Positions 5,223-25,393 of a stretch of 64,000 bases of DNA are shown here, piece after piece. How positions within the stretch are numbered: the stretch's first letter is position 1; each line of letters starts with the position of its first letter. The DNA comes from an uncultured Bacilli bacterium (GTDB lineage Bacteria; Bacillota_I; Bacilli_A; RF39; UBA660): NCBI GenBank assembly GCA_934129885.1, contig CAKOWU010000007.1, forward strand, positions 13,566 to 77,565, read 5' to 3'. The notes under the pieces are model-generated. The model ran no database searches and was not told where the DNA came from. It worked only from the letters and a program-made list of their open reading frames with translations. Both the position numbers and the translations under genes were made by a program.

Positions 5223-6530
5223 TTAAAACGGCATCTTAAGAGTACCATTATTTAATTTTTTCATCATTAACTTCATTTGTTCAAATTGTTTTAAAAGCCT
5301 ATTTACATCCTCAACCTCTAAACCACATCCACCAGCAATTCTCTTCTTACGACTCGCCTTCAAAATATCCGGATGTCTTCTTTCATAAGGTGTCATAGAA
5401 AGAACTATTGCCTCAATGTGTGCCATTTGTTTCGGATCAATACTAACATTATTAAGTCCCATCTTGCGTGCTCCAGGTAACATCTTAATAATATTCTCAA
5501 GCGGTCCTAGTTTCTTAATCTGATTAAGTTGAACAAGAAAATCCTCCAAATCAAACTTACCCTTTTGCATCTTAGAAGCAACTTTAACAGCATCCTCATC
5601 ATCAAGTATCGCAGAAGCCTTATCTGCAATACTCATCAAATCCCCCATATCTAAAATCCTGTTAGCCATACTTTCTGGATGAAACTTCTCAAGACCATCC
5701 ATCTTTTCAGACACACCAATAAACTTAATAGGAATATTAGTCAAATGCCTAATAGAAAGTGCCGCTCCACCTTTAGTGTCACCATCCATTTTAGTCAAAA
5801 TAGCACCAGTAAGCGGGAGTCTATTATTAAAGCCTTCTATAACATTAATAGCGTCCTGACCAGTCATACTATCAACAACAAGCAATATCTCATTAGGAGA
5901 AGTCTCTCTATTAATCTCCTCTAATTCCTCCATTAGCTCCTCATCAACATGTAACCTACCAGCAGTATCTATCAAAATATAATTATATCCATTAGCGGAA
6001 GCATACTCTAAAGCATTCTTTGCAATAACCACAGGGTCGCCTTTACCCTCACTATAAACTTCAATATTAAGTTCCTTACCTATCTGTTTAAGTTGCTCTA
6101 TCGCCGCAGGCCTATATACATCACAGGCAACCATAAGAGGCTTAACCCCATAATTTTTACGTACAAAATTAGCCAGTTTACCAGTAGTAGTAGTCTTACC
6201 GCTACCCTGAAGACCAGTCATCATAGCCACCGTCCTGCCTTTAACAAGTATTAGTGGTTCATCTTCCTTACCAAGTAAATAGATAAGTTCATCTCTTACA
6301 ATCTTAACAAATACCTCTCCAGGCTTTAAACTCTTTTGAACATCTTCTCCAAGAGCCTTTTCCTTAACATTATTTATAAACTCCTTAACAACCTTATAAT
6401 TAACGTCAGCCTCTAACAAAGCAAGCCTAATCTCTCTAGTAACCTCACTAATATTGCCTTCAGTTATCTTGCCATAACCCTTTATCTTATTAACAGCACT
6501 CTGTAACCTATCCCCTAAACTTTCAAACAT
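5223..6530 (-). CDS. ffh: signal recognition particle protein Ffh
   Basis: MFESLGDRLQ N-terminus, GLQGSGKTTT, DTAGR, and a Met-rich C-terminal M domain. Confidence 0.96.
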   Translation of the reverse strand: MFESLGDRLQSAVNKIKGYGKITEGNISEVTREIRLALLEADVNYKVVKEFINNVKEKALGEDVQKSLKPGEVFVKIVRDELIYLLGKEDEPLILVKGRTVAMMTGLQGSGKTTTTGKLANFVRKNYGVKPLMVACDVYRPAAIEQLKQIGKELNIEVYSEGKGDPVVIAKNALEYASANGYNYILIDTAGRLHVDEELMEELEEINRETSPNEILLVVDSMTGQDAINVIEGFNNRLPLTGAILTKMDGDTKGGAALSIRHLTNIPIKFIGVSEKMDGLEKFHPESMANRILDMGDLMSIADKASAILDDEDAVKVASKMQKGKFDLEDFLVQLNQIKKLGPLENIIKMLPGARKMGLNNVSIDPKQMAHIEAIVLSMTPYERRHPDILKASRKKRIAGGCGLEVEDVNRLLKQFEQMKLMMKKLNNGTLKMPF

Positions 6531-6554
6531 AAATTATCTATCACCTCAAAAATC

Positions 6555-6971
6555 CTATTCATAACTACTACTATAACCATCCGTACAGTAATCACTACCA
6601 CACTTTAAATATGGCACATAACTCATTTTACTATTGTCACGCCTATAAAAAACATAGCCATCACACTCTTTTCCCTTCTCATCAGTAAGCGTATTAATCA
6701 AATTTTTATCCTTTAAAGTATCTAAACTAACATACCCCTCATCTCCATTATCTAAAGGTTTATGATAATTCAAAACATACCCAGCTCCAGCACTCTTTAA
6801 AGTATTTTCTAAATCAACATAAGACTTACTACTAGGACCCTCAAAAATTTCTTTAAACGACTTATTATACATAAACATCGTTATAAATATACAAAGCATA
6901 ATAGTTACCAAAAAAAGCATACTTTCTTTTAAACCAAAACCATATTCATTCATCTTTTCATCCCCTAACAC
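6555..6971 (-). CDS. hypothetical membrane-anchored protein
   Basis: ORF with an N-terminal TM helix, translationally abutting the upstream ORF. No recognisable family. Confidence 0.55.
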   Translation of the reverse strand: MLGDEKMNEYGFGLKESMLFLVTIMLCIFITMFMYNKSFKEIFEGPSSKSYVDLENTLKSAGAGYVLNYHKPLDNGDEGYVSLDTLKDKNLINTLTDEKGKECDGYVFYRRDNSKMSYVPYLKCGSDYCTDGYSSSYE

Positions 6972-7468
6972 TACACCAAGGACTCTTTATTAAGAAGGAT
7001 CTTATCATATAGAATCGCAACACTTAAATTAAATGAAGGCTCACTTTCTATTTTAGTCATAAGTTCATCATATTTTTCTTCCTTTAAATAATCAGAAAAA
7101 AACGAAGAATCATAACTCTTTACCACCTTATTTTTCTTAAGAATAGTCTTTAAATACGAAATACTAGAAGATATATTTTTATAATTACCACTATCTTCAA
7201 AAATTTTAATAACCCTAATCATCTCAAAAGTTATAAGTTCATGACCATAATTACTCTTAAAATATTCATTTAAAAGTTTATACTGTTCCCTGTATTCTTC
7301 ATCATTAGTTAAATAATTAAAATCCTCATTATAAAGTGCAAGCACTAACTTTACAACATCATACTTTTTATAATCATACTTAACAGCCGTCTTTAAAATA
7401 GCCTTTGTAACGTTATTATATAATGAGTTAGAAAACTCCTGCTTTATTCGTATATCCTTGTAATTCAT
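6971..7468 (-). CDS. hypothetical protein
   Basis: 165-aa ORF co-oriented with ffh. No family recognised. Confidence 0.55.
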   Translation of the reverse strand: MNYKDIRIKQEFSNSLYNNVTKAILKTAVKYDYKKYDVVKLVLALYNEDFNYLTNDEEYREQYKLLNEYFKSNYGHELITFEMIRVIKIFEDSGNYKNISSSISYLKTILKKNKVVKSYDSSFFSDYLKEEKYDELMTKIESEPSFNLSVAILYDKILLNKESLV

Positions 7469-13466: not shown

Positions 13467-15443
13467 ATGTTAGAAATGGGTGATCGAATGAAAAAATACA
13501 AAAAAACAAAAATACTAATTATCTTCATTCTTTTACCCATATTAGTAATATTAAGTATTTATCTATATGCTTACATATCCCCAAAACTTTCAATAGATGG
13601 TGCGAATGGCTACTACTTATACGATAATACCCAAAAACTATATAATGGTAGTAATGAAGACTGGGCAAACCTAAACCAAATATCAAATAACTTAATAAAT
13701 GCTACCATTTCTATCGAAGATAAAAACTTTTACAAACATAAAGGCTTTGACCCCTTAAGAATAATAAAAGCCTTATTTATAAATATAAAATCAAACGCCA
13801 CCATCCAAGGTGCCTCCACAATATCCCAGCAATATTCAAAAAACCTATTTCTAGACTTCGATAAAACCTGGTCTAGAAAACTAAAAGAAGCCTGGATAAC
13901 AGTACGTCTAGAAACCCACTATACCAAAGACGAAATATTAGAAGGATATCTAAACACCATCAACTACGGTGGTATATTTGGTATCGAAAACGCCTCAAAC
14001 TATTACTTTGGTAAAAACTCGCATGACCTTACCCTCGCAGAAGCATCCATGTTAGCGGGTATCCCCAAAAACCCTAGTACCTACTCTCCACTTATAAATG
14101 AAGAAAAAGCCAAAAAAAGGCAAAAAAGCATTTTAAACTCCATGGTTATAAATGGCTATATTACAGAAGAAGACGCAAATGCAGCCTATAAAGAAAAATT
14201 AACCTATAAAAGTAAAGATGACTCTGCCAATCTAAAAATGATGATGTACTATCAGGACGCCGTTATGGATGAACTAGAATCATTAGAAGGACTTCCCGCT
14301 TCCTTTCTAGATACCGGAGGTCTTAAAATATATACAAATTTAGATACTAACGCTCAAAAGTTATTAGAAAAATCTGGGAACAAAAATATCACATCAGATG
14401 GTATTCAAATGGCTGCTGTTGCTATCGAGCCTACAACCGGTAAAGTAATAGCATTAACAGGCGGAATGGATTACAATAAAAGTGAATACAATCGTGCCAC
14501 CAAAAGCACCAGACAAGTAGGATCTACCATAAAACCTTTTCTATACTATTCAGCCCTAGAAAATGGTTTCACTCCTTCCACAACATTTACCAGTGAAAAA
14601 ACAACCTTTACATTTGATAACAATAAAACCTATACTCCTAAAAACTACAACAATGAATATCCAAACAAACAAATAAGTATGGCCGCTGCCATCGCCTATT
14701 CAGATAACATATATGCCGTAAAAACCCATCTATTTCTAGGAGAAAATAATCTCACAAACACTTTAAAAAGAGTTGGTATAACTAAAGAAGTAAAAAACCT
14801 ACCCTCACTAGCACTCGGTGCCGAAGAAATAAATCTAATGGAAATGATGGAAGGCTATACTACACTAGCAAGTGGTGGCAACAAAATTAAGCCATATTTT
14901 ATCTCCAAAGTAACCGATATGAAAGGCAATATTTTATACGAAAATACTGGGAAGCCAGAAAGCGCCCTAAACAAAAGTACCACATATATACTAAATGAAT
15001 TACTTACAACAACATACTCTAAAGAGTTTATTGACTATAACACACCAACATGCTACTCAATATCTCCTAAAATGAGTCATAAATACGCAATAAAAAGTGG
15101 TACCACTAATACAGATAACCTAATATTTGGATACAACAAAAATATATTAGTAGGAATGTGGACTGGATATGATACCAACAAAGAAGTGACAAACAAGGAC
15201 AGCGCCAACATAAAAAATGCTTGGATAGACTTTACCGAAAGTTACCTAGAAGACAAAGACAAAGAAAACGAATGGTATACCGTGCCAGAAAACGTCGTCG
15301 GTGTTGCTATTGACCCAATAAGTGGAAACATCGCAAATGCCACATCAAAAACTAAAATACTATACTATATTAAAGGAACAGAACCTAAAAAAGATAATTA
15401 TAGTCTAGAAGATACCATTCCAACAATAAAAGAGCAGAATTAG
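13467..15443 (+). CDS. class A penicillin-binding protein (glycosyltransferase + transpeptidase)
   Basis: GT51 motifs (EDKNFYKHKGFD, GASTISQQ, RKLKEAW) and transpeptidase STIKPF and KSGTT. ATG 13488 (MKKYKK) is an alternative start. Confidence 0.93.
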   Translation: MLEMGDRMKKYKKTKILIIFILLPILVILSIYLYAYISPKLSIDGANGYYLYDNTQKLYNGSNEDWANLNQISNNLINATISIEDKNFYKHKGFDPLRIIKALFINIKSNATIQGASTISQQYSKNLFLDFDKTWSRKLKEAWITVRLETHYTKDEILEGYLNTINYGGIFGIENASNYYFGKNSHDLTLAEASMLAGIPKNPSTYSPLINEEKAKKRQKSILNSMVINGYITEEDANAAYKEKLTYKSKDDSANLKMMMYYQDAVMDELESLEGLPASFLDTGGLKIYTNLDTNAQKLLEKSGNKNITSDGIQMAAVAIEPTTGKVIALTGGMDYNKSEYNRATKSTRQVGSTIKPFLYYSALENGFTPSTTFTSEKTTFTFDNNKTYTPKNYNNEYPNKQISMAAAIAYSDNIYAVKTHLFLGENNLTNTLKRVGITKEVKNLPSLALGAEEINLMEMMEGYTTLASGGNKIKPYFISKVTDMKGNILYENTGKPESALNKSTTYILNELLTTTYSKEFIDYNTPTCYSISPKMSHKYAIKSGTTNTDNLIFGYNKNILVGMWTGYDTNKEVTNKDSANIKNAWIDFTESYLEDKDKENEWYTVPENVVGVAIDPISGNIANATSKTKILYYIKGTEPKKDNYSLEDTIPTIKEQN

Positions 15444-16726
15444 TTAATATCTATCTGCTTCTTTTTTACTTTAGGAAATCCTTCCTCTAAAATAATACCA
15501 TTTGCAAAAAGTTTCAAATAACTTTCTCTATTCTCTTCATTAAAACTAGTAATACCGTATTTAGCAAGACTATCCATAAATACATTTTCTTTATCCACAC
15601 CAATACCAGTTTCAATCAAACTATTAAACATAGGGTCAACAATAAAATTTTTTGCTCCTTTTTTATCGTGGTAACAAACAGTAATATAATTATGATTTAA
15701 AACATCTTTACCTTGTTCACTAGTATTATGTAAAGCACAATCAATCCCCTCACTTACTAAACGAGAAAATATATGCAGGCTTATATCGTCATTCCATAAA
15801 TCATGACTAATACATTCTTTTTCTATTCTATTCTTCCATCCACTAGTTTGTTTTAATATTTGTTCTGGAATAGGAATATCACCATAAAGTTTTGGTTTGA
15901 TTCCTAGCTCAAAAATTGAATCACATATTTTATAATAATAAAACTGTATAATCGCCTCACAGTTATCACTATCATCTCCTATAGCCTTATTCATAGCCTT
16001 TTTATAAGCCATATCTTCATTTGTCGATATATAAATAGAAGGAAGTCCAACATTTAAAAATAGTTTATTAATAAAACCTCTAATACTCCTACCATTACCA
16101 TCCACAAACGGGTGTATCTTAATAAGTTTACATTTAAATCTTATACATGCATCAATATAATCAAATAGCTTCTCTGGCATTTCTGGTATCTGTTTAGCCA
16201 AAACCATAATATCCTCTAAATCATAATTAGCGTCCCTTAAAGCCGGCCAAATACTTAAATAATCCAAAAAATTAACCCTAGAGCCATTAATATGACAATC
16301 AGAATTTCTTGTATGACCACCAAACGTATAATCAGCATCATAATTATTATTTTGCACAATTTCTGCATCTATTACTGAATAAAGCTTTTGATGCAAATCA
16401 AGTAATGTATAAATATCAAAGTTATCATCTATTTCTGGTGAATGAATATATTCATACATTGCGGCCATGCCCTCTTTTTCCTGGTGACTATGACTACCTT
16501 CTAAAATAGCTTCGCATTCAATATAATGATTAACAAAATTATCAGTTAAATCATCCAAATTACGCTCACTCGCATCTAAAGAATAATAATAACGAATAAG
16601 ATTCTTCGGAATATCTAAATTTTCTTTTTGATATAGTATTCCCTCATCTTTCTGCTTTTCATATCCTGAAAATAACATAATAATAATATTTTCAAGTTCC
16701 CTACCACTTATTTTACCAATATTCAT
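15440..16726 (-). CDS. Fic-domain protein with canonical active-site motif
   Basis: IHPFVDGNGRSIRGF equals HPFxDGNGRxxR, embedded in a 428-aa protein with long flanking regions. Confidence 0.85.
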   Translation of the reverse strand: MNIGKISGRELENIIIMLFSGYEKQKDEGILYQKENLDIPKNLIRYYYSLDASERNLDDLTDNFVNHYIECEAILEGSHSHQEKEGMAAMYEYIHSPEIDDNFDIYTLLDLHQKLYSVIDAEIVQNNNYDADYTFGGHTRNSDCHINGSRVNFLDYLSIWPALRDANYDLEDIMVLAKQIPEMPEKLFDYIDACIRFKCKLIKIHPFVDGNGRSIRGFINKLFLNVGLPSIYISTNEDMAYKKAMNKAIGDDSDNCEAIIQFYYYKICDSIFELGIKPKLYGDIPIPEQILKQTSGWKNRIEKECISHDLWNDDISLHIFSRLVSEGIDCALHNTSEQGKDVLNHNYITVCYHDKKGAKNFIVDPMFNSLIETGIGVDKENVFMDSLAKYGITSFNEENRESYLKLFANGIILEEGFPKVKKKQIDIN

Positions 16727-16789
16727 ATAATCACCACCTCTTTGTGCAGTTATTATAGCAAATTTTAAAAATTAGTCAATTTTTTCCAT

Positions 16790-17030
16790 ATATATTATTA
16801 GTTTTATAGCTATCACGAAACCCTTTTATTTTAAATTTAGAAAAACCACTTTGTTTAAAAGATGACTATAAACACATTTTAAGTCGTTAGAATCATTTCT
16901 AAGAGAGAGGCTATCAACTTCTCTTAAAAATTTATTATAAATAAATCAGTTTTATTTATCAAAATTCTTTGCTCTATATTTGGATAAAGTCTAAAAATAT
17001 ATCCTCTAAGTATTTTTACATAATCACCTC
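16790..17030 (-). pseudogene. decayed IS200/IS605-family tnpB (OrfB) 5' fragment
   Basis: GAGGTGA then ATG-TAA, then frameshifted pieces (V)KILRGYIFRLYPNIEQRILINKT, REVDSLSLRNDSNDLKCVYSHLLNK and SGFSKFKIKGFRDSYKTNN. These match the conserved TnpB N-terminal pattern (YKFRLYPN.EQ, PKFKSKK..SY.T). Several stops, and truncated after about 110 codons. Confidence 0.55.
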
Positions 17031-17127
17031 GATTCACTATATATAGCATAACGTTTAAAATAAATGTTTGTAACGTTTGCTTTAAAATTTTTATGACTTT
17101 CCTATTACATAAAAAAGAAACTAAAAC

Positions 17128-17778
17128 CTAGTTCCTTTCTCTACCAAATATCTTTAATAATTCAATAAATAAATTAATAAAATCAAGATATAAATTAAAC
17201 GCTCCTAAAATAGCATAATTCTCATTACCATAACCAGAAGTATTCATTCTTCCAATTCGCTGCATATCATATGCAATATAACCAATAAATATTATTACAC
17301 CAATAATAGCCGTTACCATATTAAGTGTACTATTAAGCATAAAAATATTTACTACTTCAAGAACTATAATAACAAGTAATCCTATCAATAAATACGTTCC
17401 AAGCTTGTTTAAATCTACCTTAGTTTTTGAACCAATAAGTGCAAAAATACCAAATATAACAGCAGTCGCAAGTAATATATACATAACAGACGTCATTTCA
17501 AACATATAAAATATACTAGCAAACGTTAACCCTGTTAAGGCCGTATAACCGACATATAGTATTTTAGCAGTCGCTGGTTGCATCTTTTCTATTCTAATAG
17601 ACAACACAAGACACAAAACTATCTGAACTATAAATATTATCCAATAAGCTCCACCAGAAAATATCCTATTTAAAAGTTCCTCATTAGTAAGTGTATAATA
17701 ACCAGTAGCAAAAGTAATAAGTAATCCAATAAAAAGCCACATAAACACTTTTGAATAAAAATTATTCATTCTCTCCAT
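17128..17778 (-). CDS. BAX inhibitor-1/YccA family membrane protein
   Basis: Seven hydrophobic segments and a C-terminal LYLDFINLFIELLKIFG motif. Confidence 0.88.
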   Translation of the reverse strand: MERMNNFYSKVFMWLFIGLLITFATGYYTLTNEELLNRIFSGGAYWIIFIVQIVLCLVLSIRIEKMQPATAKILYVGYTALTGLTFASIFYMFEMTSVMYILLATAVIFGIFALIGSKTKVDLNKLGTYLLIGLLVIIVLEVVNIFMLNSTLNMVTAIIGVIIFIGYIAYDMQRIGRMNTSGYGNENYAILGAFNLYLDFINLFIELLKIFGRERN

Positions 17779-17868
17779 TCCTCTTTCTATTATTTATATT
17801 ATAGCACACATATCATTTAATCATCTAACATATATCATTAATTTACATCACTTATGTATAATTATATT

Positions 17869-18801
17869 TTATTTTTTTAACTTTTTTGAATAAATATGAA
17901 GAAAATCTAACTTAGTTTCATCATCCTCATATATTAAATCAGATAAATCAATAGCTTTATCCAAATTTAAAGGAGCATGAGTGACATTACCTTTTTGTTT
18001 AGATATCATTCTATCTATATACTCCTCATCAAAATTAGGACTCATAGAATAATCTAATAATGATTGATAGAATTTTACAAGTTGTTGCCAATGTAAAGGC
18101 TTTAATGTTCCATTCGCACATCTAAATTCTATGGTATTTTTACCAGTTGGTTTAATTACCTCATCTCTCAAATTAGCTATATTCAAAGCCGAACTTCTAG
18201 CTAAATAAAGATAATCTAATACCGTTTTATACCTTTTACCTCTCGCACATTCTAGCAATTCCAATACAAAATCAAGGCCCATACTCACTGGAACTGAATA
18301 CCTTTCAATAGATTCTCGTGGTCCTTTACCAAAATAACCAAAATTAAATATTACATCTTCATAAGCAATCCAAAGTTTATAAAGGTTTAATAAATAATAT
18401 GGATCACTTGCAAACTCTGTTCCATCTATATGAACATGAGCCCCGCACTTATTAGTAATAAAATAATTCATCATCTTTATTTCCTTACATACATTTTTTA
18501 ATTCTTTCCACGTTTCTTTTGTATCTGATAAAATAGGTGAAACAAACTCATAGCCAATTATTTCTTCACTATAATCATTTATAGAACGGTCATTAACAAA
18601 CTGCCACGAAGTCTTATATAACTTCTTATTAGGAAATATCCTATCAGTACCATCAACTACATTTTCATCAAATTCCAAAAAATTTTCAGTATGTTCCATA
18701 CTTCCAACTTCTATTTCAACACCAAAAGATCTTTTAACACACATTATTTTTTTATATTTAGGTTTATGCTTTTGGATTTCATCTAATCTATACTTTTTCA
18801 T
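17869..18801 (-). CDS. amidoligase-like (Amidoligase_2 / glutamine-synthetase-fold) enzyme
   Basis: FGVEIEVGS, GYEFVSPIL, CGAHVHID and NTIEFRCANGTL occur in the order typical of the putative amidoligase family. Starts 55 nt downstream of the RT stop. Confidence 0.7.
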   Translation of the reverse strand: MKKYRLDEIQKHKPKYKKIMCVKRSFGVEIEVGSMEHTENFLEFDENVVDGTDRIFPNKKLYKTSWQFVNDRSINDYSEEIIGYEFVSPILSDTKETWKELKNVCKEIKMMNYFITNKCGAHVHIDGTEFASDPYYLLNLYKLWIAYEDVIFNFGYFGKGPRESIERYSVPVSMGLDFVLELLECARGKRYKTVLDYLYLARSSALNIANLRDEVIKPTGKNTIEFRCANGTLKPLHWQQLVKFYQSLLDYSMSPNFDEEYIDRMISKQKGNVTHAPLNLDKAIDLSDLIYEDDETKLDFLHIYSKKLKK

Positions 18802-18856: not shown

Positions 18857-19960
18857 TCATAACTTAAGTCTATATAAAAACTCTCTAGCATTTGCCATCA
18901 TAAAATATCCCTTATAGCTAGCCTTTACAAGTTCGTATTTTTTACCACCTTTCCTCTTTAACCTGCGTAACTTTCTTTTTATCCTTTTTTTATTTTGATT
19001 ACGAAGTAAAACAATTAACCTTTTCTCCTTTAATACAAATTTATACCCAAGAAAATCAAAACCTTTATTCAAATCATAAATTTGAGTTTTAATATTTAAT
19101 TCTAACTTAAGTTTATGTACCTCATCCCCTATTATTTTCAAAACTTCTTTTAAATACTCTTTATCATGGTGAACAATTAAAAAATCATCCATATAACGTA
19201 CATAATTTTTTATCCTTAACTTTTCCTTAATGAAATGATCAAAATCACTTAAATAATAAATTGCCAATATCTGACTAGTTTCATTCCCAATAGGTAACCC
19301 CTTACCATTTTTATATCTAGGTAAATAACTCAGTTCCTTTTTTTTCTTATCTAAATCAGTAAGACCCATTTGCGTAATACGAGCAATTTCTCTCTTAACC
19401 GCACTATCAATAAATTTATTAACCTCAACCTTCTCTGTACTTTCTATAATATTTTTTACCACGTTGTATATATCAGGATCAGTAATATCTTTTCTTAACT
19501 TATTAAGCAATATTTCATGATCAATATTATAAAAATATTTACTTATATCACACTTTAAAACATATAACTTATCAAAATTTTCTTTTTCTCTATTTATAAA
19601 CTTTTTTAAATACTCTATTCCTTTTTTAGTACCCATACCTTTCCTTGTCGCAACATTAGTATTTATAAATTTTTTTTCTAAACTAGGCAGTAAAGCATAA
19701 TGACTAATCAAATGATTAACAATTTTATCACCCAAAGTCTCACTCATAATAATACGATATTTTGGTTCCTTTATTAAAAATACATTATAATGATGGTGAT
19801 TATACTCTTTTCTTCTTAAAATATCTAATATATATACAATATTACTGGTAAAAGCTAGTTCAAATCGAACTAGCTTCTCTTTGTGACATGTATTCGTGCG
19901 AATATTCTCATACACATTTTTTATCTTATCAATAGATAGTAAATCTTCGTACTTAACCAT
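18857..19960 (-). CDS. reverse transcriptase, DGR type
   Basis: RT motifs LKCDISKYFYNIDH and YVRYMDDFLIV (YMDD), plus the DGR-specific motif-4 signature LPIGNETSQ ([I/L]GxxxSQ). Its ATG overlaps the stop of the upstream ORF (TAATG). Confidence 0.9.
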   Translation of the reverse strand: MVKYEDLLSIDKIKNVYENIRTNTCHKEKLVRFELAFTSNIVYILDILRRKEYNHHHYNVFLIKEPKYRIIMSETLGDKIVNHLISHYALLPSLEKKFINTNVATRKGMGTKKGIEYLKKFINREKENFDKLYVLKCDISKYFYNIDHEILLNKLRKDITDPDIYNVVKNIIESTEKVEVNKFIDSAVKREIARITQMGLTDLDKKKKELSYLPRYKNGKGLPIGNETSQILAIYYLSDFDHFIKEKLRIKNYVRYMDDFLIVHHDKEYLKEVLKIIGDEVHKLKLELNIKTQIYDLNKGFDFLGYKFVLKEKRLIVLLRNQNKKRIKRKLRRLKRKGGKKYELVKASYKGYFMMANAREFLYRLKL

Positions 19961-20595
19961 TACTTAACACCACTTAAATAATAACTTTTATTTGACTTAT
20001 CATATACAAAAGTTTTACTTGTACCCTTATCTAAAACATCATTTAAAGTGTCCTCATTATAGTCTCCTATCTCTTCAGATGCTAAATTATAAACCTTATC
20101 GTCCCGAGCATATCCAAACTTAACATCTACAAGTAACTGGTCAATGCTGTAACTATACCCAAATAATTTTGAAACATATTTTGTATCACAATTATCTGTT
20201 TTCTCCCTTGTAATCTTATCACCAGATAAAGTATATTTATAACCACCATAAACAAACTCATTAAAAGTTACATCTTTATTACCAGCTACTGCCTTAATAG
20301 CCTTATTATAACTTTCTACATTAATACTATCACTTAATAACTTATCATTTTTCATCATTGAAAACGCCATATAAATAATCGCATCATTTTCATTATTGGC
20401 ATTTCCTAAAGTAGTGCACTCATCAGCCATAATATTTTCATAAAGAGTATCAACGACATCATGCTTTACAGTTTCCTTCTGTGCAAGTTCATCACTATCA
20501 TCCTTCTTTACTAATACAAAGGTCAAAAATATAATAATAATTACTATAACAAATACTATAGCGATAATAACTTTCTTATTTTTTAACTTCTCCAT
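19960..20595 (-). CDS. hypothetical membrane-anchored protein between avd and RT
   Basis: 211 aa with an N-terminal TM helix (VIIAIVFVIVIIIIFLTFVLV). Overlaps the avd end by 20 nt and the RT start by 1 nt. No family recognised. Confidence 0.65.
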   Translation of the reverse strand: MEKLKNKKVIIAIVFVIVIIIIFLTFVLVKKDDSDELAQKETVKHDVVDTLYENIMADECTTLGNANNENDAIIYMAFSMMKNDKLLSDSINVESYNKAIKAVAGNKDVTFNEFVYGGYKYTLSGDKITREKTDNCDTKYVSKLFGYSYSIDQLLVDVKFGYARDDKVYNLASEEIGDYNEDTLNDVLDKGTSKTFVYDKSNKSYYLSGVK

Positions 20596-20938
20596 TTATA
20601 TCATTCCTTTTTTTTAATCCATAAATCATTTTTCTAATCTCTGTAAAAAACCTTCCTAAAACTTCAAACTGATGTTTACTAATAATTTTTTTATCATATG
20701 AAACTCTAACATAAAAATCTAACATCGATGTCTTAATGAGCATATCTTTCAAATTCTTTTCTCTAATTCTATCAGTATCATTAATACTGTATGCAAAAAC
20801 AAGTTCAACTAACTGATAACAAGCCTGCTCTATATTATTACTTAAAATCATTTCTCTTTTAGGGTAATTTATTAATAACTTGTTAAAATAATTAACTGTT
20901 TTATAAATATTATTTAGTATTTTAAAATTGTAATTCAT
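20576..20938 (-). CDS. avd: Avd-like four-helix-bundle protein (accessory variability determinant / 23S rRNA IVS protein family)
   Basis: 120 aa from ATG 20938, with AAGGTGA 5 nt upstream. Pattern YPKREMILSNNIEQACYQLVELVFAY is typical of this helical family. Sits beside a DGR-type RT. Confidence 0.72.
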   Translation of the reverse strand: MNYNFKILNNIYKTVNYFNKLLINYPKREMILSNNIEQACYQLVELVFAYSINDTDRIREKNLKDMLIKTSMLDFYVRVSYDKKIISKHQFEVLGRFFTEIRKMIYGLKKRNDINGEVKK

Positions 20939-21015
20939 AATTTCACCTTTTAATAATTGTGTGGCGAAAGGGAAAGCAATAAAATCAAAGATGACCCTAA
21001 CCCACCGATATAGCA

Positions 21016-21206
21016 ATAGTTATATAAACACACTCGCAGTTATATAACGTCTATATCATCTTTTTAGGCATATGCCAAGGAATTAACCTTGTTTCCAATC
21101 TGAATAAGATTATTGCCAAAATGGCAACTACTTCCTCTCGTTATTAGCCTTAACCAAATAACATCACGGTTCATTAGTAAATAATTACTAATCGTAGTAG
21201 GAAATT
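21016..21206 (-). promoter_or_regulatory. structured non-coding leader between the cassette array and avd
   Basis: Palindromes GGCATATGCC (21067-21076), CAAGGAATTAACCTTG (21076-21091) and TTGCCAAAATGGCAA (21113-21127). Direct repeat AGTTATATAA x2 (about 21019-21050). Function unknown. Confidence 0.3.
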
Positions 21207-21207
21207 G

Positions 21208-21312
21208 GGCGGACGCCGAGACTATTCCACGTATTAGTTTCGTTCAAGTTACCCGTACTACCCAGATATAACTCGTTAGCGTTAAACCTGTTGTTATAGT
21301 TAGACGGCGACA
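21208..21312 (-). repeat. silent cassette C1 (Asn/AAC-rich, template-like)
   Basis: Box GGCGGACGCCG to box GACGGCGACA spans 105 nt. Minus-strand frame: VSPS-NYNNRFNANELYLGSTGNLNETNTWNSL-GVRP, with 9 Asn (7 AAC). Confidence 0.85.
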
Positions 21313-21364
21313 CCTATAAACCACCATACATTAAGGTTAATCCCTATTACCCTTTTGGAAAATG

Positions 21365-21469
21365 GGCGGACGCCGAGCCAATTGTTAGTATCCCAGTTAT
21401 CGAACTCACCAGAATCACGCACCATAATCTCGTTAGCGTTGAACCAGTTATTGAAGTGGAACGGCGACA
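21365..21469 (-). repeat. silent cassette C2 (Asn/AAC-rich, template-like)
   Basis: 105 nt box to box. VSPF-HFNNWFNANEIMVRDSGEFDNWDTNNWL-GVRP, with 7 Asn (5 AAC). Confidence 0.85.
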
Positions 21470-21518
21470 CACAAAACCTTACTCTAAAGTTAATCCCTAT
21501 ATCTTTTTTTTGGAAAGT

Positions 21519-21623
21519 GGCGGACGCCGATCGTATTCCAAGTGTTCCAATTATCCATAGAACCTATAGAATTAACGATATACTCGTTAGCATTGAACCA
21601 ATTGTTGAAAAGAGACGGCGACA
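21519..21623 (-). repeat. silent cassette C3 (Asn-rich, template-like)
   Basis: 105 nt box to box. VSPS-LFNNWFNANEYIVNSIGSMDNWNTWNTI-GVR, with 8 Asn. Confidence 0.85.
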
Positions 21624-21671
21624 CATACAACCTATCTTAAGGTTAATCCCTAATATTCTTTTTCGGAAAGT

Positions 21672-21776
21672 GGCGGACGCCGAGCCAGCTAGCGGGGTCC
21701 CACTCAATAATAGAACCATTCTCATGTACTAAAAACACATTAGAAGCAAGCCAACTATCAAAAAGGGACGGCGACA
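21672..21776 (-). repeat. silent cassette C4 (Asn-poor, diversified-looking)
   Basis: 105 nt box to box. MSPS-LFDSWLASNVFLVHENGSIIEWDPASWL-GVR. Confidence 0.85.
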
Positions 21777-21823
21777 TCCATAGCCTCATCTTAAGATTAA
21801 TCCCTATATCTTTTTTGGAAAGT

Positions 21824-21928
21824 GGCGGACGCCGAGCTCATTCCAAACATTCCAATCATTCATAGAACCCACAGCATGCACTGCAATCTCAGGAGCAGCG
21901 AGCCAATCTTTGAAACGAGACGGCGACA
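21824..21928 (-). repeat. silent cassette C5 (Asn-poor, diversified-looking)
   Basis: 105 nt box to box. MSPS-RFKDWLAAPEIAVHAVGSMNDWNVWNEL-GVR. Confidence 0.85.
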
Positions 21929-21976
21929 TCTATAACCTATCTTAAGATTAATTCCTAATATCCTTCTTGGAAATTG

Positions 21977-22081
21977 GGCGGACGCCGTACCATGAATGCA
22001 TACTAAAGAAATCAATAGCACCAGATACACTTATGAAAAGCCCATAAGAGGTCTGCCAATGATCAAAGCGGGACGGCGACA
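21977..22081 (-). repeat. silent cassette C6, identical to the expressed variable module
   Basis: 105 nt box to box. VSPS-RFDHWQTSYGLFISVSGAIDFFSMHSWY-GVRP. Positions 21976-22081 equal 22542-22647 (106/106 nt). Confidence 0.9.
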
Positions 22082-22129
22082 CACATACCTTAATTTAAGA
22101 TTAACACCTATATTCTTTTTTGGAAATTG

Positions 22130-22234
22130 GGCGGACGCCGTAAGTATTCCACACATTAGTTCCATAAAGGTAACCTAAACTACCCAGATAAAACATGCTA
22201 GCATAAAAGCCATAATGGAAAACGGACGGCGACA
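22130..22234 (-). repeat. silent cassette C7 (Asn-poor, diversified-looking)
   Basis: 105 nt box to box. LSPS-VFHYGFYASMFYLGSLGYLYGTNVWNTY-GVRP. Confidence 0.85.
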
Positions 22235-22400
22235 AATCGCACATAATTTTAGGTTAATCCTTACTCGGAAAATTTTTTTATTGCTATGAAGCAATATCCT
22301 ATATCCAAGTTTTAAATTATGGGGGCATCCTTTTTATTTATCTTGCGGTCCCCCATGCCCATTATTTATTTATCACTCTCCACACATCATATTCATCGCG

Positions 22401-22428
22401 GGACAAAAATGATGAGTCATTTTTGTCC
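22401..22428 (-). promoter_or_regulatory. perfect 12-bp stem / 4-nt loop hairpin downstream of the target gene
   Basis: GGACAAAAATGA-TGAG-TCATTTTTGTCC. No U-tract follows on either strand, so it is not a typical intrinsic terminator. Confidence 0.5.
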
Positions 22429-22455
22429 ATCAATGTTCTGATTATATTTCATGAA

Positions 22456-22479
22456 ATGTGGTTTCTTACGAAACCACAT
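22456..22479 (-). promoter_or_regulatory. 10-bp stem hairpin whose tetraloop contains the target-gene stop codon
   Basis: ATGTGGTTTC-TTAC-GAAACCACAT. On the coding strand the loop is GTAA (GNRA-type), and its TAA is the stop of the 975-aa ORF. Confidence 0.5.
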
Positions 22480-25393
22480 ATGGATCTTCTTTCGTACCTG
22501 TTCCAGTAAATGTCAGATTATCAGTATTCAGATTGAGAACCGGGCGGACGCCGTACCATGAATGCATACTAAAGAAATCAATAGCACCAGATACACTTAT
22601 GAAAAGCCCATAAGAGGTCTGCCAATGATCAAAGCGGGACGGCGACATGGTCCAATAGTTCGTACCACTGTATAGATAATAGAGGGAGTTCATGGCTCCT
22701 GCCATTCCCCCTGCCATATTTACTTCATCGGCTGTAATTAAACCAATAGCCTTTGTCAAAGAGCCGTTACTGATGCTATACTCATCATCTGAATTACATA
22801 ATAACGTTGGTCCCTTAGGTGAACCACCCCAATTCCAAAATCTTTCATAACCATAAATAGTAGGTGTTATTCCGTATCCTGTATTCTTATAAGTACCAGA
22901 CTGAAGTGTTGATATATTTTTATTATTACAATATGTCGTATTCTTTGAGAACTTATCTGTATAACTAGATAAATTACTATCATACCAACTATCCAAATAA
23001 GTTTTTATAGTACTATTAGTTACTTTCGCAAATGCCCCTTCTTTCGAAGTAGAACCATAGCCTTTGCCACTTACTGTCATAGATGAAGAACTCACATATT
23101 TTTTTGTATAAAACAAACGCTGACATGAATTGTTTTTATTAGTATCGAAGCAAGTATAATACCCTACCTTATCAGTGGCTAATGTTCCACTAATTAAATC
23201 ACCAGAAACCTTATAACTTTTAGTACTCTTATCGAACGTATAACTAGTTCCAAAATAATACTTTGATGTAGAAGATAAACCAGTATAATTAAATGTTAAA
23301 TCTCCACTATCAGTCTGTACAAAATTACTTTCGTCTCCATACATATACCCAACATAAGCATTATCATTAATATATGAATTAAAAGCCCTAGTACCGACCT
23401 GTCTATCACTAGTCGATTCTCCATTAGGATGTGCACTAGAGCCATCATATATCATTCTAACAGAGCCATCACCATTTACCCTTATTATTCTCCAATATTT
23501 ATTCGCAAACTTAACATAGTTACCACCAACAGAACCACGATAATAATAAGTATCCCCATCATTATCAGTACCTGCATACATGCCAACATCTTTAGTATCA
23601 TAACTTGCCATATTCTGTGTATAGTTATACTTAGTAAATGTATAAGTTTTAGTACCAGTAGTAGAATTAGTACTCGCACTTACACTAGATATCTTATACA
23701 TAGTAGACGCTATAGTATTCCAATTTTGTCCAAGCGTATAATATGTAGTACTAGTATAATCAAGATTACCAGGTTCAACAGTACTACCACCAGTTATTTG
23801 ATACATACCAGTATTAGTATTAAACGTATAACCAGTACCTATATATACATCAGATAAAGTCGTTGACCAAGTTGATAAACTAGTCGCAGCCTTTTCACTA
23901 TAACTTAATTTAGGCGAAGTACTTGTAAAACTTGGAGTACCTTTAGCCTTAATAGTACTTTTCGCAGACGTAATATCAGTATCCTTTGCCTCACTCGCAA
24001 TAACACAATCCCCTAAATCAGTAATACCATTCTTTTCACAGTAACTTTTATGCTTTATAGCAGTCGTTCCCGCTTTAGTAGAAGAAGTATTTCCCGCCTT
24101 ATCTTGAACATAAACATTAACTATATACTCACCCTCTGATAAAGACGTAAACGTATAATTAGCGTTTTCGCTAGAAGTATATGTCTGTCCACCATCTTTA
24201 CTATAATAGTAAGTATTAAGGCCACTATCCTTATCAGAAGCATTTACCTCTACCGTCATAGTATCATCATCAGGAGTAACCGTTACACTATTTACCGTTG
24301 GATCAACGTTATCTACTAAATAACTATCCGAACACTGTTCAGTACTGTTACCAACTCTGTCAGTAGCCTTAAAACATAACTTTTGCTCACTACTACTTCC
24401 ATCAAAAACATAATTAAAAGTATTATCATCCGATAAAGTAGCCTCTTTAGTAGGAGTACATGTTTCATCTGTAGTTACACAATATAAAAACGTTTTTATT
24501 TTATCATTATCTGTTACTGTATTTGTTAGGGTAACCGCCTTATTCCAATTATTATTACCTTGTATTATTTCTTTTTCTTCTATTTTTATGGTTGGTTTAG
24601 TAGTATCTATAGTTTTAGTAGTAGATGTTGATACTACAACATTACCATCTTTATCTTCAGCCTTAACATATATAGTATAGTTGGTATTAGGAGTTAGATC
24701 AGTTAAAATATAGTTATCATTCATGCTGGTATACCATTTATCATTATCGTATGAATAATAATAATTTACAGCATCTGTAGCACTTACTCTTACATTTATT
24801 CTATTTTCTTCTGGGGTTAAGGAAATACCTGCGATAGATAGGTTATCAATAGAGGGAGCATCTGCACCTGAAAATTCTGTTTTACTACCTTCTTGGACAA
24901 AATTTAAATCGGCGGTTATATCAAAGGTTTTATTACCTACACTTGTAGTTACATTTTCATCATATGTGATAGTGACATAAAAGGTTTTACTATCACCTGA
25001 TTTTAAAACATCACCAGAACTGATATCCTCTATTTTAGATTTTAGGATGCTGGAGTCATTCATATTTATTTTAATATAGTCTAAGGCAGCATTTAGTGTC
25101 CCTTCATTAGATACAGTAATGGCGTATTTAGCACTATCACCTGGAGACTTAAAATTTACATTCATAGATGCGTTAAGTTCACTAAAAGTGGCATCACTTT
25201 CTTCGGTAGCCATGCCAGTTAATTTTTCTAATTTTATATTTGTTATTACTACTTTCCATTTTGTAGAAATACTGCTGGTACCTTTAATATCAAGTTGACT
25301 GCTAAAAGCAGAATAGCCTACTGCCATCAAAGTCATAATTCCAAGCATAAAAACAATTAGATAATTTTTCCTTATCATGTCTCTTCTTCTCAT
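22466..25393 (-). CDS. large secreted/surface protein, putative DGR target (Ig/FN3-like repeats plus C-terminal 'YW..SP...GVRP' binding module)
   Basis: N-terminal signal/anchor (LIVFMLGIMTLMAVGYSAF). Repeated beta-sandwich-like units (NYTIYVKAEDKDGN, EYIVNVYVQDKAGN, KATDRVGN). GAGG RBS before ATG 25393. The C-terminal region is homologous to the 59452 paralogue. Confidence 0.85.
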   Translation of the reverse strand: MRRRDMIRKNYLIVFMLGIMTLMAVGYSAFSSQLDIKGTSSISTKWKVVITNIKLEKLTGMATEESDATFSELNASMNVNFKSPGDSAKYAITVSNEGTLNAALDYIKINMNDSSILKSKIEDISSGDVLKSGDSKTFYVTITYDENVTTSVGNKTFDITADLNFVQEGSKTEFSGADAPSIDNLSIAGISLTPEENRINVRVSATDAVNYYYSYDNDKWYTSMNDNYILTDLTPNTNYTIYVKAEDKDGNVVVSTSTTKTIDTTKPTIKIEEKEIIQGNNNWNKAVTLTNTVTDNDKIKTFLYCVTTDETCTPTKEATLSDDNTFNYVFDGSSSEQKLCFKATDRVGNSTEQCSDSYLVDNVDPTVNSVTVTPDDDTMTVEVNASDKDSGLNTYYYSKDGGQTYTSSENANYTFTSLSEGEYIVNVYVQDKAGNTSSTKAGTTAIKHKSYCEKNGITDLGDCVIASEAKDTDITSAKSTIKAKGTPSFTSTSPKLSYSEKAATSLSTWSTTLSDVYIGTGYTFNTNTGMYQITGGSTVEPGNLDYTSTTYYTLGQNWNTIASTMYKISSVSASTNSTTGTKTYTFTKYNYTQNMASYDTKDVGMYAGTDNDGDTYYYRGSVGGNYVKFANKYWRIIRVNGDGSVRMIYDGSSAHPNGESTSDRQVGTRAFNSYINDNAYVGYMYGDESNFVQTDSGDLTFNYTGLSSTSKYYFGTSYTFDKSTKSYKVSGDLISGTLATDKVGYYTCFDTNKNNSCQRLFYTKKYVSSSSMTVSGKGYGSTSKEGAFAKVTNSTIKTYLDSWYDSNLSSYTDKFSKNTTYCNNKNISTLQSGTYKNTGYGITPTIYGYERFWNWGGSPKGPTLLCNSDDEYSISNGSLTKAIGLITADEVNMAGGMAGAMNSLYYLYSGTNYWTMSPSRFDHWQTSYGLFISVSGAIDFFSMHSWYGVRPVLNLNTDNLTFTGTGTKEDPYVVS
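22543..22647 (-). other. expressed variable module (VR-like) of the surface protein
   Basis: Same two GC-rich boxes as the cassettes, 105 nt apart. Encodes MSPS...YGVRP (codons 916-950, ending 25 codons before the stop). Confidence 0.85.

Follow-up and report, generated by a model that had tools for sequence, protein, structure and literature searches.

A probable diversity-generating retroelement with seven tandem templates for one variable region in an uncultured gut Bacilli bacterium

The window analysed here is a 64-kb stretch of contig CAKOWU010000007.1, assembled from an uncultured Bacilli bacterium. It contains, entirely on the minus strand, what is probably a chromosomal diversity-generating retroelement (DGR) of a low-GC gut Bacilli bacterium, in which seven tandem template cassettes (C1 to C7) serve a single variable region (VR). 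The assignment to the DGRs follows from four features: a reverse transcriptase (RT) with an IGxxxSQ motif, an Avd protein, adenine-specific differences between template repeat (TR) and VR, and the position of the VR at the 3' end of a target gene. An initial annotation made from the sequence alone had described an expression site with a silent, in-frame cassette array and had assigned the locus to the DGRs. Seven cassettes, all open in the VR frame, were found, and the RT motif, Avd and adenine-specific changes in sister strains supported the DGR assignment.

Genes, boxes and cassettes of the locus

The locus comprises the following features.

22466..25393, minus strand: DGR target gene, open reading frame (ORF) of 975 amino acids (aa), Pfam hits to Ig-like (Big_13/PKD-type) domains
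22542..22647, minus strand: VR, 106 nucleotides (nt), 75 nt (~25 codons) before the target stop codon, bounded by TGTCGCCGT and the GC-rich CGGCGTCCGCCC
22235..22465, minus strand: intergenic leader, 231 nt, non-coding, with hairpins, from the target stop codon to the array
22401-22428, minus strand: hairpin GGACAAAAATGA..TCATTTTTGTCC in the leader, ~110-120 nt downstream of the VR and past the target stop codon
22129..22234, minus strand: C7, adenine-poor, 18 adenines
21976..22081, minus strand: C6, adenine-poor, 16 adenines, no AAY codon, identical to the VR
21823..21928, minus strand: C5, adenine-poor, nearest relative C3
21671..21776, minus strand: C4, adenine-poor
21518..21623, minus strand: C3, adenine-rich, 26 adenines, 8 AAY codons
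21364..21469, minus strand: C2, adenine-rich, 23 adenines, 7 AAY codons
21207..21312, minus strand: C1, adenine-rich, 30 adenines, 9 AAY codons, adjoining the spacer RNA
20990..21206, minus strand: structured spacer (Sp) RNA, ~215 nt, downstream of C1, beginning with the tag CAATTTCC
20576..21016, minus strand: avd, given as the longest ORF; metagenome records start at the ATG at 20938 (120 aa)
19960..20595, minus strand: ORF of 211 aa between avd and the RT gene, with a hydrophobic N-terminal stretch
18857..19960, minus strand: DGR RT, 367 aa, Pfam RVT_1

The RT carries the motifs LPIGNETSQ (IGxxxSQ) and YMDD. RTs of the DGR clade have [LIV]GxxxSQ where group II intron RTs have QG. The best match among solved structures was 8ub7_A (entries 8ub7-8ube; E 1.5e-22), a 328-aa reverse transcriptase that we take to be the RT of Bordetella phage BPP-1, and group II intron and retron RTs ranked below it in the same list. 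The avd product matched Pfam bAvd (E 4.8e-12, 46.8 bits against a cut-off of 40); its single NCBIfam match was DivGenRetAVD, at 43.6 bits under a cut-off of 80. The host chromosome has a GC content of ~29% and encodes a class B RNase P and a tmRNA, and the nearest relatives of the RT all belong to uncultured gut Bacilli, 'Tenericutes' and Firmicutes bacterium CAG:822.

The VR lies at the 3' end of the protein-coding target, whereas the cassettes are intergenic, between the target gene and avd. Each cassette is 106 nt long and has, on the coding strand, a 5' box TGTCGCCGT and a GC-rich 3' box CGGCGTCCGCC (on the plus strand, GGCGGACGCCG and ACGGCGAC). The boxes occur exactly eight times in the window, in the seven cassettes (21207-22234) and in the VR, with none on the other strand, and they are the sole GC-rich islands in the genome. 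The end of the VR is separated from C7 by 309 nt, made of the last 75 coding nt, the stop codon and the 231-nt leader, which ends with a spacer-like motif (TTTTCC..AGGATTAACCT) immediately 5' of C7. Conserved spacers of ~47 nt lie between the cassettes. On reading the sequences these internal spacers resemble spacer RNAs with the middle deleted, suggesting that the arrays arose by tandem duplication of a template-plus-spacer unit; inspection by eye of a short hairpin in the internal spacers gave no convincing conserved pairing.

Every cassette is followed by the tag CAATTTCC, and the VR instead by CGGTTCTC. The same distinction was found across species, with CAATTTCC 3' of cassettes and C(A/G)GTTNTC 3' of VRs. 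By analogy with IMH*/IMH, this flank difference may set the direction of transfer. VRs derived from C3 retain the VR's own last base (CGCCC, not CGCCA), indicating that the transfer boundary lies inside the 3' box.

All seven cassettes are stop-free in the VR frame and encode peptides of the shape SPSxF..W......G......W...GVR. The eight cassettes compared had 0 stops in this frame as against 1 and 3-8 in the other two, a result with a joint shuffle probability of ~1e-6. We therefore conclude that the cassettes are kept usable as donors. C4 and C5 (21671-21928) are also preceded by an in-frame ATG (..GGATGTCGCC and ..AGATGTCGCC), like the VR in its context CCATGTCGCC; the other cassettes have GTG or TTG at this place, and gene callers annotate C5 as a 41-aa ORF.

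Two other architectures were rejected. A shufflon or invertase did not fit, as no inverted repeats of the boxes were found in the 64-kb window and a Pfam scan of the ten neighbouring ORFs revealed no recombinase. The cassettes could not be several VRs of one hidden TR either: they are intergenic, their differences from one another involve every type of base, and the true VRs trace to single cassettes.

The C-terminal 299 aa of the target, overlapping the VR, gave a weak match to DUF6273 (E 8.7e-4, below the family cut-off). DUF6273-like domains reportedly resemble C-type lectin domains (PMC10743442). An AlphaFold2 model of the variable domain built with 25 sequences had a pLDDT of 41.8, too low for a fold search, and a sequence search of the PDB with this domain matched nothing relevant.

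The Sp RNA was conserved over 12 copies from eight related loci, with compensatory changes at 15/39 predicted pairs, and its single-sequence fold had a z-score of -2.35. In BPP-1 the Sp region recruits RT-Avd and primes synthesis of complementary DNA (cDNA) (PMC12875486); from its matching position, the Sp RNA described here would have the same role. The leader hairpin is likewise kept in other species (L012, L015, L019, L021 and others), where the letters of the stem differ, pairing is retained and a constant core, AATGACTC(A/T)TCATT, stands amid the varying stems. It could be a terminator, the start of a template transcript or a target-recognition element. No Rfam family matched the array or the spacer RNA. 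When the array region was scanned for promoters and terminators, sites were no more numerous than in shuffled sequence.

Variable regions and arrays in sister strains

Ten further loci of the same species (L001 to L010) were retrieved from independent metagenome assemblies by means of the exact RT protein and the 90% cluster of the target protein, which contains only 14 sequences. The same target gene was present in the same context in all ten, and the RT protein was identical in the window and in L001-L006. Each sister VR described below could be assigned to one cassette of its own array, and the differences were located almost only at template adenines.

L002 VR, template C2: adenines changed 8/23, other bases 0/81
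L003 VR, template C2: adenines changed 10/23, other bases 1/81
L008 VR, template C2: adenines changed 10/23, other bases 0/81
L009 VR, template C2: adenines changed 2/23, other bases 0/81
L004 VR, template C3: adenines changed 11/26, other bases 2/78
L010 VR, template its own variant of C1: adenines changed 12/30, other bases 0/74

Pooled over these six alleles, template adenines were changed at 53/148 positions and other bases at 3/473; the adenines were replaced by G (23), T (20) or C (10). C3 was also the donor for the target proteins P0006, P0008, P0012 and P0014. Adenine-mutated VRs from C1-C3, associated with an identical RT in the window and L001-L006, indicated that this is an active, classical adenine-mutagenic DGR using alternative templates for one VR. 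Altogether, C1, C2, C3, C6 and part of C7 match VRs found in the population. The recent movement of sequence between array and gene proposed initially was borne out. The expression site is not fixed, a state that would have spoken against that proposal: conspecific VRs derive from C1, C2, C3 or C6. No further VR alleles of the species were found in the JGI metagenome contigs scanned for the VR flank, and homologues of the C-terminal 160 aa of the target were only fragments from other species, with at most 63% identity.

The L004 VR (L004:7315-7418) has an adenine-mutated C3 body, and its last 6-16 nt match the 3' end of C7. Its two non-adenine changes lie in these C7-matching bases, which identifies it as a C3/C7 chimera. 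By inspection, the VR of a related locus from another species (L024:768-875) is also a mosaic, with a 5' half from cassette 1308 and a 3' half from cassette 1141. The L004 and L024 mosaics imply either template switching between cassettes or partial, sequential retrohoming. In the L003 VR (L003:7620-7723, also in P0003 and P0010), the single non-adenine change, G-to-T, creates an in-frame TAG that shortens the target to 936 aa. This allele was recorded on 7+1 contigs; a knocked-out target thus persists in some populations.

The arrays of sister strains contained 5-8 cassettes and varied by whole units, including clean whole-unit deletions. The assemblies of L005 and L006 end in or near the array.

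C7-C6-C5-C4-C3-C2-C1: window, L001, L004, L007
C7-CX-C6-C5-C4-C3-C2-C1: L008, L009 (CX, extra cassette of 101 nt)
C7-CX-C5-...: L002
C7-C4-...: L003
C7-CX-C4-...: the divergent L010

C4 was 100% conserved wherever the array includes this position (L001-L005 and L007-L010), even in the divergent L010. Two clades were separated by ~65 single-nucleotide polymorphisms (SNPs) over 9.4 kb of flanking sequence, and C6 was present in arrays of both. Strains of clade A are 0-4 SNPs apart. L004 differs from the window by 1 SNP in 9.4 kb, yet has a different VR, having already replaced one of the C6 type. Clade B strains, 6-23 SNPs apart, have three different VRs. The turnover of VRs among near-identical strains is therefore fast relative to the accumulation of SNPs.

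Two further observations concern exchange within and between arrays. In the first 300 nt that follow the VR (end of the gene and intergenic sequence), as well as in C7 and CX, L002 is identical to L010, while the flanking genes of L002 group with those of L008 and L009; this pattern suggests inter-strain recombination that shuffles array segments. The base right after the 5' box (GTCGCCGT[C/T]CC) was polymorphic at the same position in two cassettes from different strains: position 21461 in C2 is T in clade A and C in clade B, and the corresponding base of C6 is T only in L008 (L008:7471). This shared polymorphism may reflect small conversion tracts between cassettes.

Origin of the exact C6 copy

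In the window, C6 (21976-22081) and the VR (22542-22647) are identical at 106/106 positions, and the match extends by 0 bases on either side. In the coding (minus) orientation, C6 is followed by AATTTCC and preceded by ..GTGTG, while the VR is followed by GGTTCTC and preceded by ..ACCATG. The exact identity, its abrupt ends and these flanks were as initially reported; the shared segment has 16 coding-strand adenines, one fewer than the approximate count of 17 given then. The two copies are direct repeats 566 nt apart, and a repeat finder placed both in one family with units spaced ~153 nt. Other cassette pairs are only ~50-75% identical, which excludes a chance match. A VR identical to C6 was also found in L001, a megahit k141 contig, and in L007, a scaffold that differs by 3 SNPs and comes from a different study, and exact 975-aa proteins with a C6-type VR were recorded as P0001 on 9 contigs and P0002 on 5.

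The distribution of C6 bears on the direction of transfer. C6 is present in the arrays of L008 and L009, which have a C2-derived VR, and of L004, which has a C3-derived VR; array-to-gene transfer is the direction shown for C1-C3. Copying of C6 into the VR in an ancestor of clade A, from array to gene, is thus likelier and simpler than archiving of the VR as C6. That this step was RT-mediated is our inference, less certain than its direction.

By analogy with BPP-1, the array and the downstream spacer RNA would be transcribed, RT-Avd would copy one cassette into cDNA, and the cDNA would replace the VR between both boxes. The adenine-rich templates C1-C3 do yield adenine-mutated VRs, and in the genome of the window the last rewrite would have used C6. 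As to how internal cassettes donate, our guess is that the UUCC tag of any cassette pairs with GGAA of the single spacer RNA; the consensus fold does pair the tag UUCC with an invariant GGAA in GAUUGGAAACAAG.

The absence of adenine changes reported initially was real and statistically unusual (0/16, P about 0.001-0.04), and the C6-type VR of P0001 and P0002 was the only unmutated allele. The RT of BPP-1 changed 30.65% of adenines in E. coli cells (PMC12875486), and at this rate ~0.3% of C6 cDNAs would be error-free. Selection could fix a copy of this kind, since C6 probably encodes a binding site that already works and an exact copy may be the fittest outcome. Such cDNAs are not vanishingly rare as C6 has only 16 adenines, none of them in an AAY codon. 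AAY codons are reportedly the most error-prone context in BPP-1. An unchanged copy is thus unusual, yet within the reach of a mutagenic RT, and no special mechanism is required; one sister allele, that of L009, has only 2/23 adenines changed. The non-mutagenic transfer first suggested is possible for C6 but unnecessary, and the locus is not generally non-mutagenic, as its pooled mutation counts show.

Several points weigh against an RT-mediated copy of C6 and against the proposed mechanism. The probability of 0/16 is ~8e-4 at the pooled rate of the locus (0.36 per adenine), ~3e-3 at the BPP-1 rate and ~0.04 when averaged over the six per-allele rates; it reaches 0.23 only at the rate of the least-mutated allele (L009, 2/23). 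The argument that selection would favour an exact copy is hypothetical. No other VRs from adenine-poor cassettes were found among the alleles compared, so that the fidelity of their copying is judged from a sample of n=1, and the window, with no adenine difference, bears in itself no sign of a mutagenic C6 transfer. The six mutated VR alleles did not arise in full independence of one another. That the array is transcribed, that cDNA is primed at internal cassettes and that UUCC pairs with GGAA are all proposals, and covariation cannot support this pairing since its four pairs are invariant.

An unlikely but serious alternative is RT-independent gene conversion, in which DNA recombination or template switching during replication would use the GC-rich boxes as microhomology and copy C6 faithfully, in the manner of pilE/pilS or vlsE. 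It would readily account for an exact copy with 0/16 adenines changed whose identity stops at the boxes, the only GC-rich islands of a ~29% GC genome, and the chimeric VRs of L004 and L024 have exchange points within cassettes. However, the shared flanks are only 9-12 nt, far under the homology that RecA-type recombination usually needs. All six alleles derived from C1-C3 are adenine-mutated, indicating that the RT route dominates at the locus. If conversion were common, unmutated copies of adenine-rich cassettes would be expected, and none was found in the species of the window or in ten related loci.

The second alternative, archiving, draws on the composition of the cassettes. C1-C3 contain 23-30 adenines and 7-9 AAY codons, and adenines make up 27-35% of their cores, compared with 35% for the gene background. 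C4-C7 contain 15-18 adenines and 0-3 AAY codons, with cores of 18-21% adenine (19% in C6), as in real VR alleles (15-21%). Adenine positions of C1-C3 preferentially differ in C4-C7 (p 5e-4 to 0.15) and the reverse was not found. By divergence at non-adenine sites, C7 pairs with C1 (23%) and C5 with C3 (17%), and in these nearest pairs A-to-N changes outnumbered N-to-A changes (15 vs 3 for C1/C7, 14 vs 5 for C3/C5). L015, a related locus, has a similar adenine-poor cassette beside an adenine-rich relative. The adenine-poor cassettes resemble the outcome of adenine mutagenesis long ago, housed today in the array, although the composition argument is partly circular for any adenine-poor/adenine-rich pair.

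These data led us to consider, as a tentative and rather doubtful extension and a long-term form of the archiving first suggested, that the locus is a two-way memory. C1-C3 would serve to explore, and mutated products would occasionally be written back, kept as C4-C7 and CX, and later reinstalled almost unchanged, of which the VR identical to C6 would be an instance. For write-back, either cDNA would home into a cassette by mistake or the VR would convert a cassette. If this were true, the DGR would pair hypermutation with an inherited store of solutions that have already proved themselves, a rudimentary form of explore-and-recall.

For C6 itself, the corresponding account is that the VR was made first and then deposited in the array; C6 would preserve a VR that once succeeded, and the identity seen now would stem from that deposit. 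We regard this as improbable. The VR-like composition of C6 and the adenine-loss pattern fit it, and the boxes common to cassettes and VR make mis-homing of cDNA into the array conceivable. On the other hand, the deposit must predate the clade split (~65 SNPs/9.4 kb) and the VR must then have remained static (rough probability <=0.05), a stasis that is improbable given the three VRs of clade B strains separated by 6-23 SNPs. C6 is no adenine-only derivative of an extant cassette: 31-41% of non-adenine sites differ from C1-C3, and a simple adenine-mutated copy of any of C1-C5 or C7 was rejected on the same ground (31-47%). In no strain did a cassette look newly copied from another with adenine mutations, the statistic on adenine loss is in part circular, and the flanks of cassettes and VR differ in the manner that sets direction in BPP-1. 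We know of no mechanism for flow from gene to array. The presence of C6 in the arrays of L004, L008 and L009 thus argues against the recent gene-to-array archiving that the initial annotation had entertained.

Finally, a mis-assembled repeat or an inert relic, with C6 a dead duplicated fragment of the gene end, can be set aside. Many assemblies do break at tandem repeats, as did those of L005 and L006. However, the structure, including the VR identical to C6, was recovered from independent samples, by different assemblers and in strains that differ slightly, and the megahit contig names give a k-mer of 141, longer than the 106-nt repeat. The cassettes are also kept from strain to strain, have an open VR frame and demonstrably act as donors, and comparable arrays occur in the hifiasm-titled metagenome-assembled genomes (MAGs) L019 and L087, the latter with only a two-copy box (one VR and one TR).

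Related loci and comparison with known systems

The comparison was extended to 80 loci with RTs 41-64% identical to that of the window. Many of them carry tandem arrays, in two designs, and among the 52 loci whose sequence reaches 2.5 kb or more upstream of the RT, 11 have three or more copies of a GC-rich box.

Design 1 (short spacers, same boxes, tag CAATTTCC): L012, 9 cassettes; L015, 4; L019, 4 (hifiasm MAG); L024; L018
Design 2 (template plus ~230-nt spacer RNA, period 334-376 nt): L021, 8 units; L023, 5; L020, 4; L016, 4

The more distant L085, L065, L060 and L036 have three or four templates. In six loci the VR matched one cassette, often an internal one, with adenine-specific changes.

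L021 VR: adenines changed 11/28, non-adenines 0/83
L020 VR: adenines changed 10/30, non-adenines 1/81
L023 VR: adenines changed 13/30, non-adenines 2/81
L016 VR: adenines changed 5/27, non-adenines 1/84
L015 VR: adenines changed 9/30, non-adenines 2/82
L012 VR: adenines changed 12/31, non-adenines 5/81

Two adjacent cassettes of L012 (4347-4469 and 4507-4629) are identical over the 112-nt segments compared, indicating a very recent duplication of the unit. In L012 (5640-5751) and L019 (5648-5759) the cassette nearest to avd is degenerate and adenine-poor, with a shorter coding part and stops in the VR frame; both retain the 3' box and a full spacer RNA.

The 211-aa ORF between avd and the RT gene had no domain or family match in Pfam or NCBIfam, and its hydrophobic N-terminus is a possible membrane anchor. 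L012 has a counterpart at the same position (6348-7004; 39% identity, E 7e-38), whereas in L021-type loci the ORF is lacking and avd adjoins the RT gene. It is a candidate accessory gene specific to one clade of DGRs. The RT gene is followed directly (15440-18801, minus strand) by genes for Amidoligase_2, Bax1-I family membrane and Fic-domain proteins, in the same order in all conspecific loci that reach that far (L001-L003, L005 and L006).

A library of templates adds a combinatorial layer, in which scaffold swaps (50-75% identity) and mosaics are followed by hypermutation, so that the reachable sequence space extends well beyond the A-to-N changes of a single template. Adenine-poor cassettes, if their copying is nearly faithful, would endow the same machinery with a stable mode resembling phase variation. 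Two questions are raised: how one spacer RNA and RT-Avd complex choose a template, and what keeps cDNA from overwriting templates with the VR's own boundaries. Detection pipelines built around a single TR/VR pair that differs at adenines may overlook such loci or call them wrongly, the window being a case with zero mismatch. Engineered DGR mutagenesis could adopt the multi-template design. The elements occur in abundant uncultured gut Bacilli, for which surface-protein variation likely matters in colonisation.

The locus shares its basic plan with canonical DGRs (Bordetella phage BPP-1 mtd/avd/TR/brt, Treponema TvpA, Legionella LdtA, the Bacteroides pilus DGRs). Both have an IGxxxSQ RT with Avd and transfer sequence one way, from TR to VR, with substitutions specific to adenines. 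In both, the VR encodes the C-terminus of a surface-type protein, the 3' boundary is GC-rich and flanked differently in TR and VR, in the manner of IMH*/IMH, and a structured spacer RNA lies directly 3' of the template. Canonical DGRs have one TR, whereas here one VR is served by 5-8 divergent tandem templates (~50-75% identical). Unlike in canonical systems, strains use different templates and mosaics are found; half of the templates have few adenines, and one of these was copied without change. The surveys searched describe one TR feeding one or many VRs, apart from a small number of computational calls of 'two TR' or 'six TR' (PMC5758913, PMC6642488, PMC8144416). Tandem template arrays were not described in the open-access DGR surveys and mechanistic papers that we searched, which is no proof of their being undescribed. 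A single template repeat per element is the usual DGR architecture, though no formal criterion, and the many templates for one VR depart from it. Multi-VR DGRs of Treponema, Stenotrophomonas and multicellular cyanobacteria likewise combine one RT with several repeats that have common boundaries; they have one template and many recipients, while the boxes in the 64-kb window define many templates and one recipient.

The arrangement also resembles silent-cassette systems (Neisseria pilE/pilS, Borrelia vlsE/vls, Mycoplasma genitalium MgPar, Treponema pallidum tprK), in which one expression site is accompanied by nearby promoterless, in-frame, boxed cassettes, copying is non-reciprocal, products are mosaic and untranslated cassettes are kept open. 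These systems rely on DNA recombination through RecA, RuvAB and similar proteins and involve neither an RT nor adenine-specific mutagenesis. In contrast, the locus has an RT and Avd, 6/7 VR alleles bear the DGR signature and the shared flanks measure 9-12 nt; the exact C6 copy is compatible with the RT route and with an RT-independent DNA route alike. Chicken and rabbit immunoglobulin genes, diversified by pseudo-V conversion and somatic hypermutation, offer a functional analogy only. Their diversification relies on AID and homologous recombination with no RNA intermediate, in organisms and with enzymes unrelated to the DGR, and the likeness lies in the combination of cassette choice with targeted hypermutation of one binding domain.

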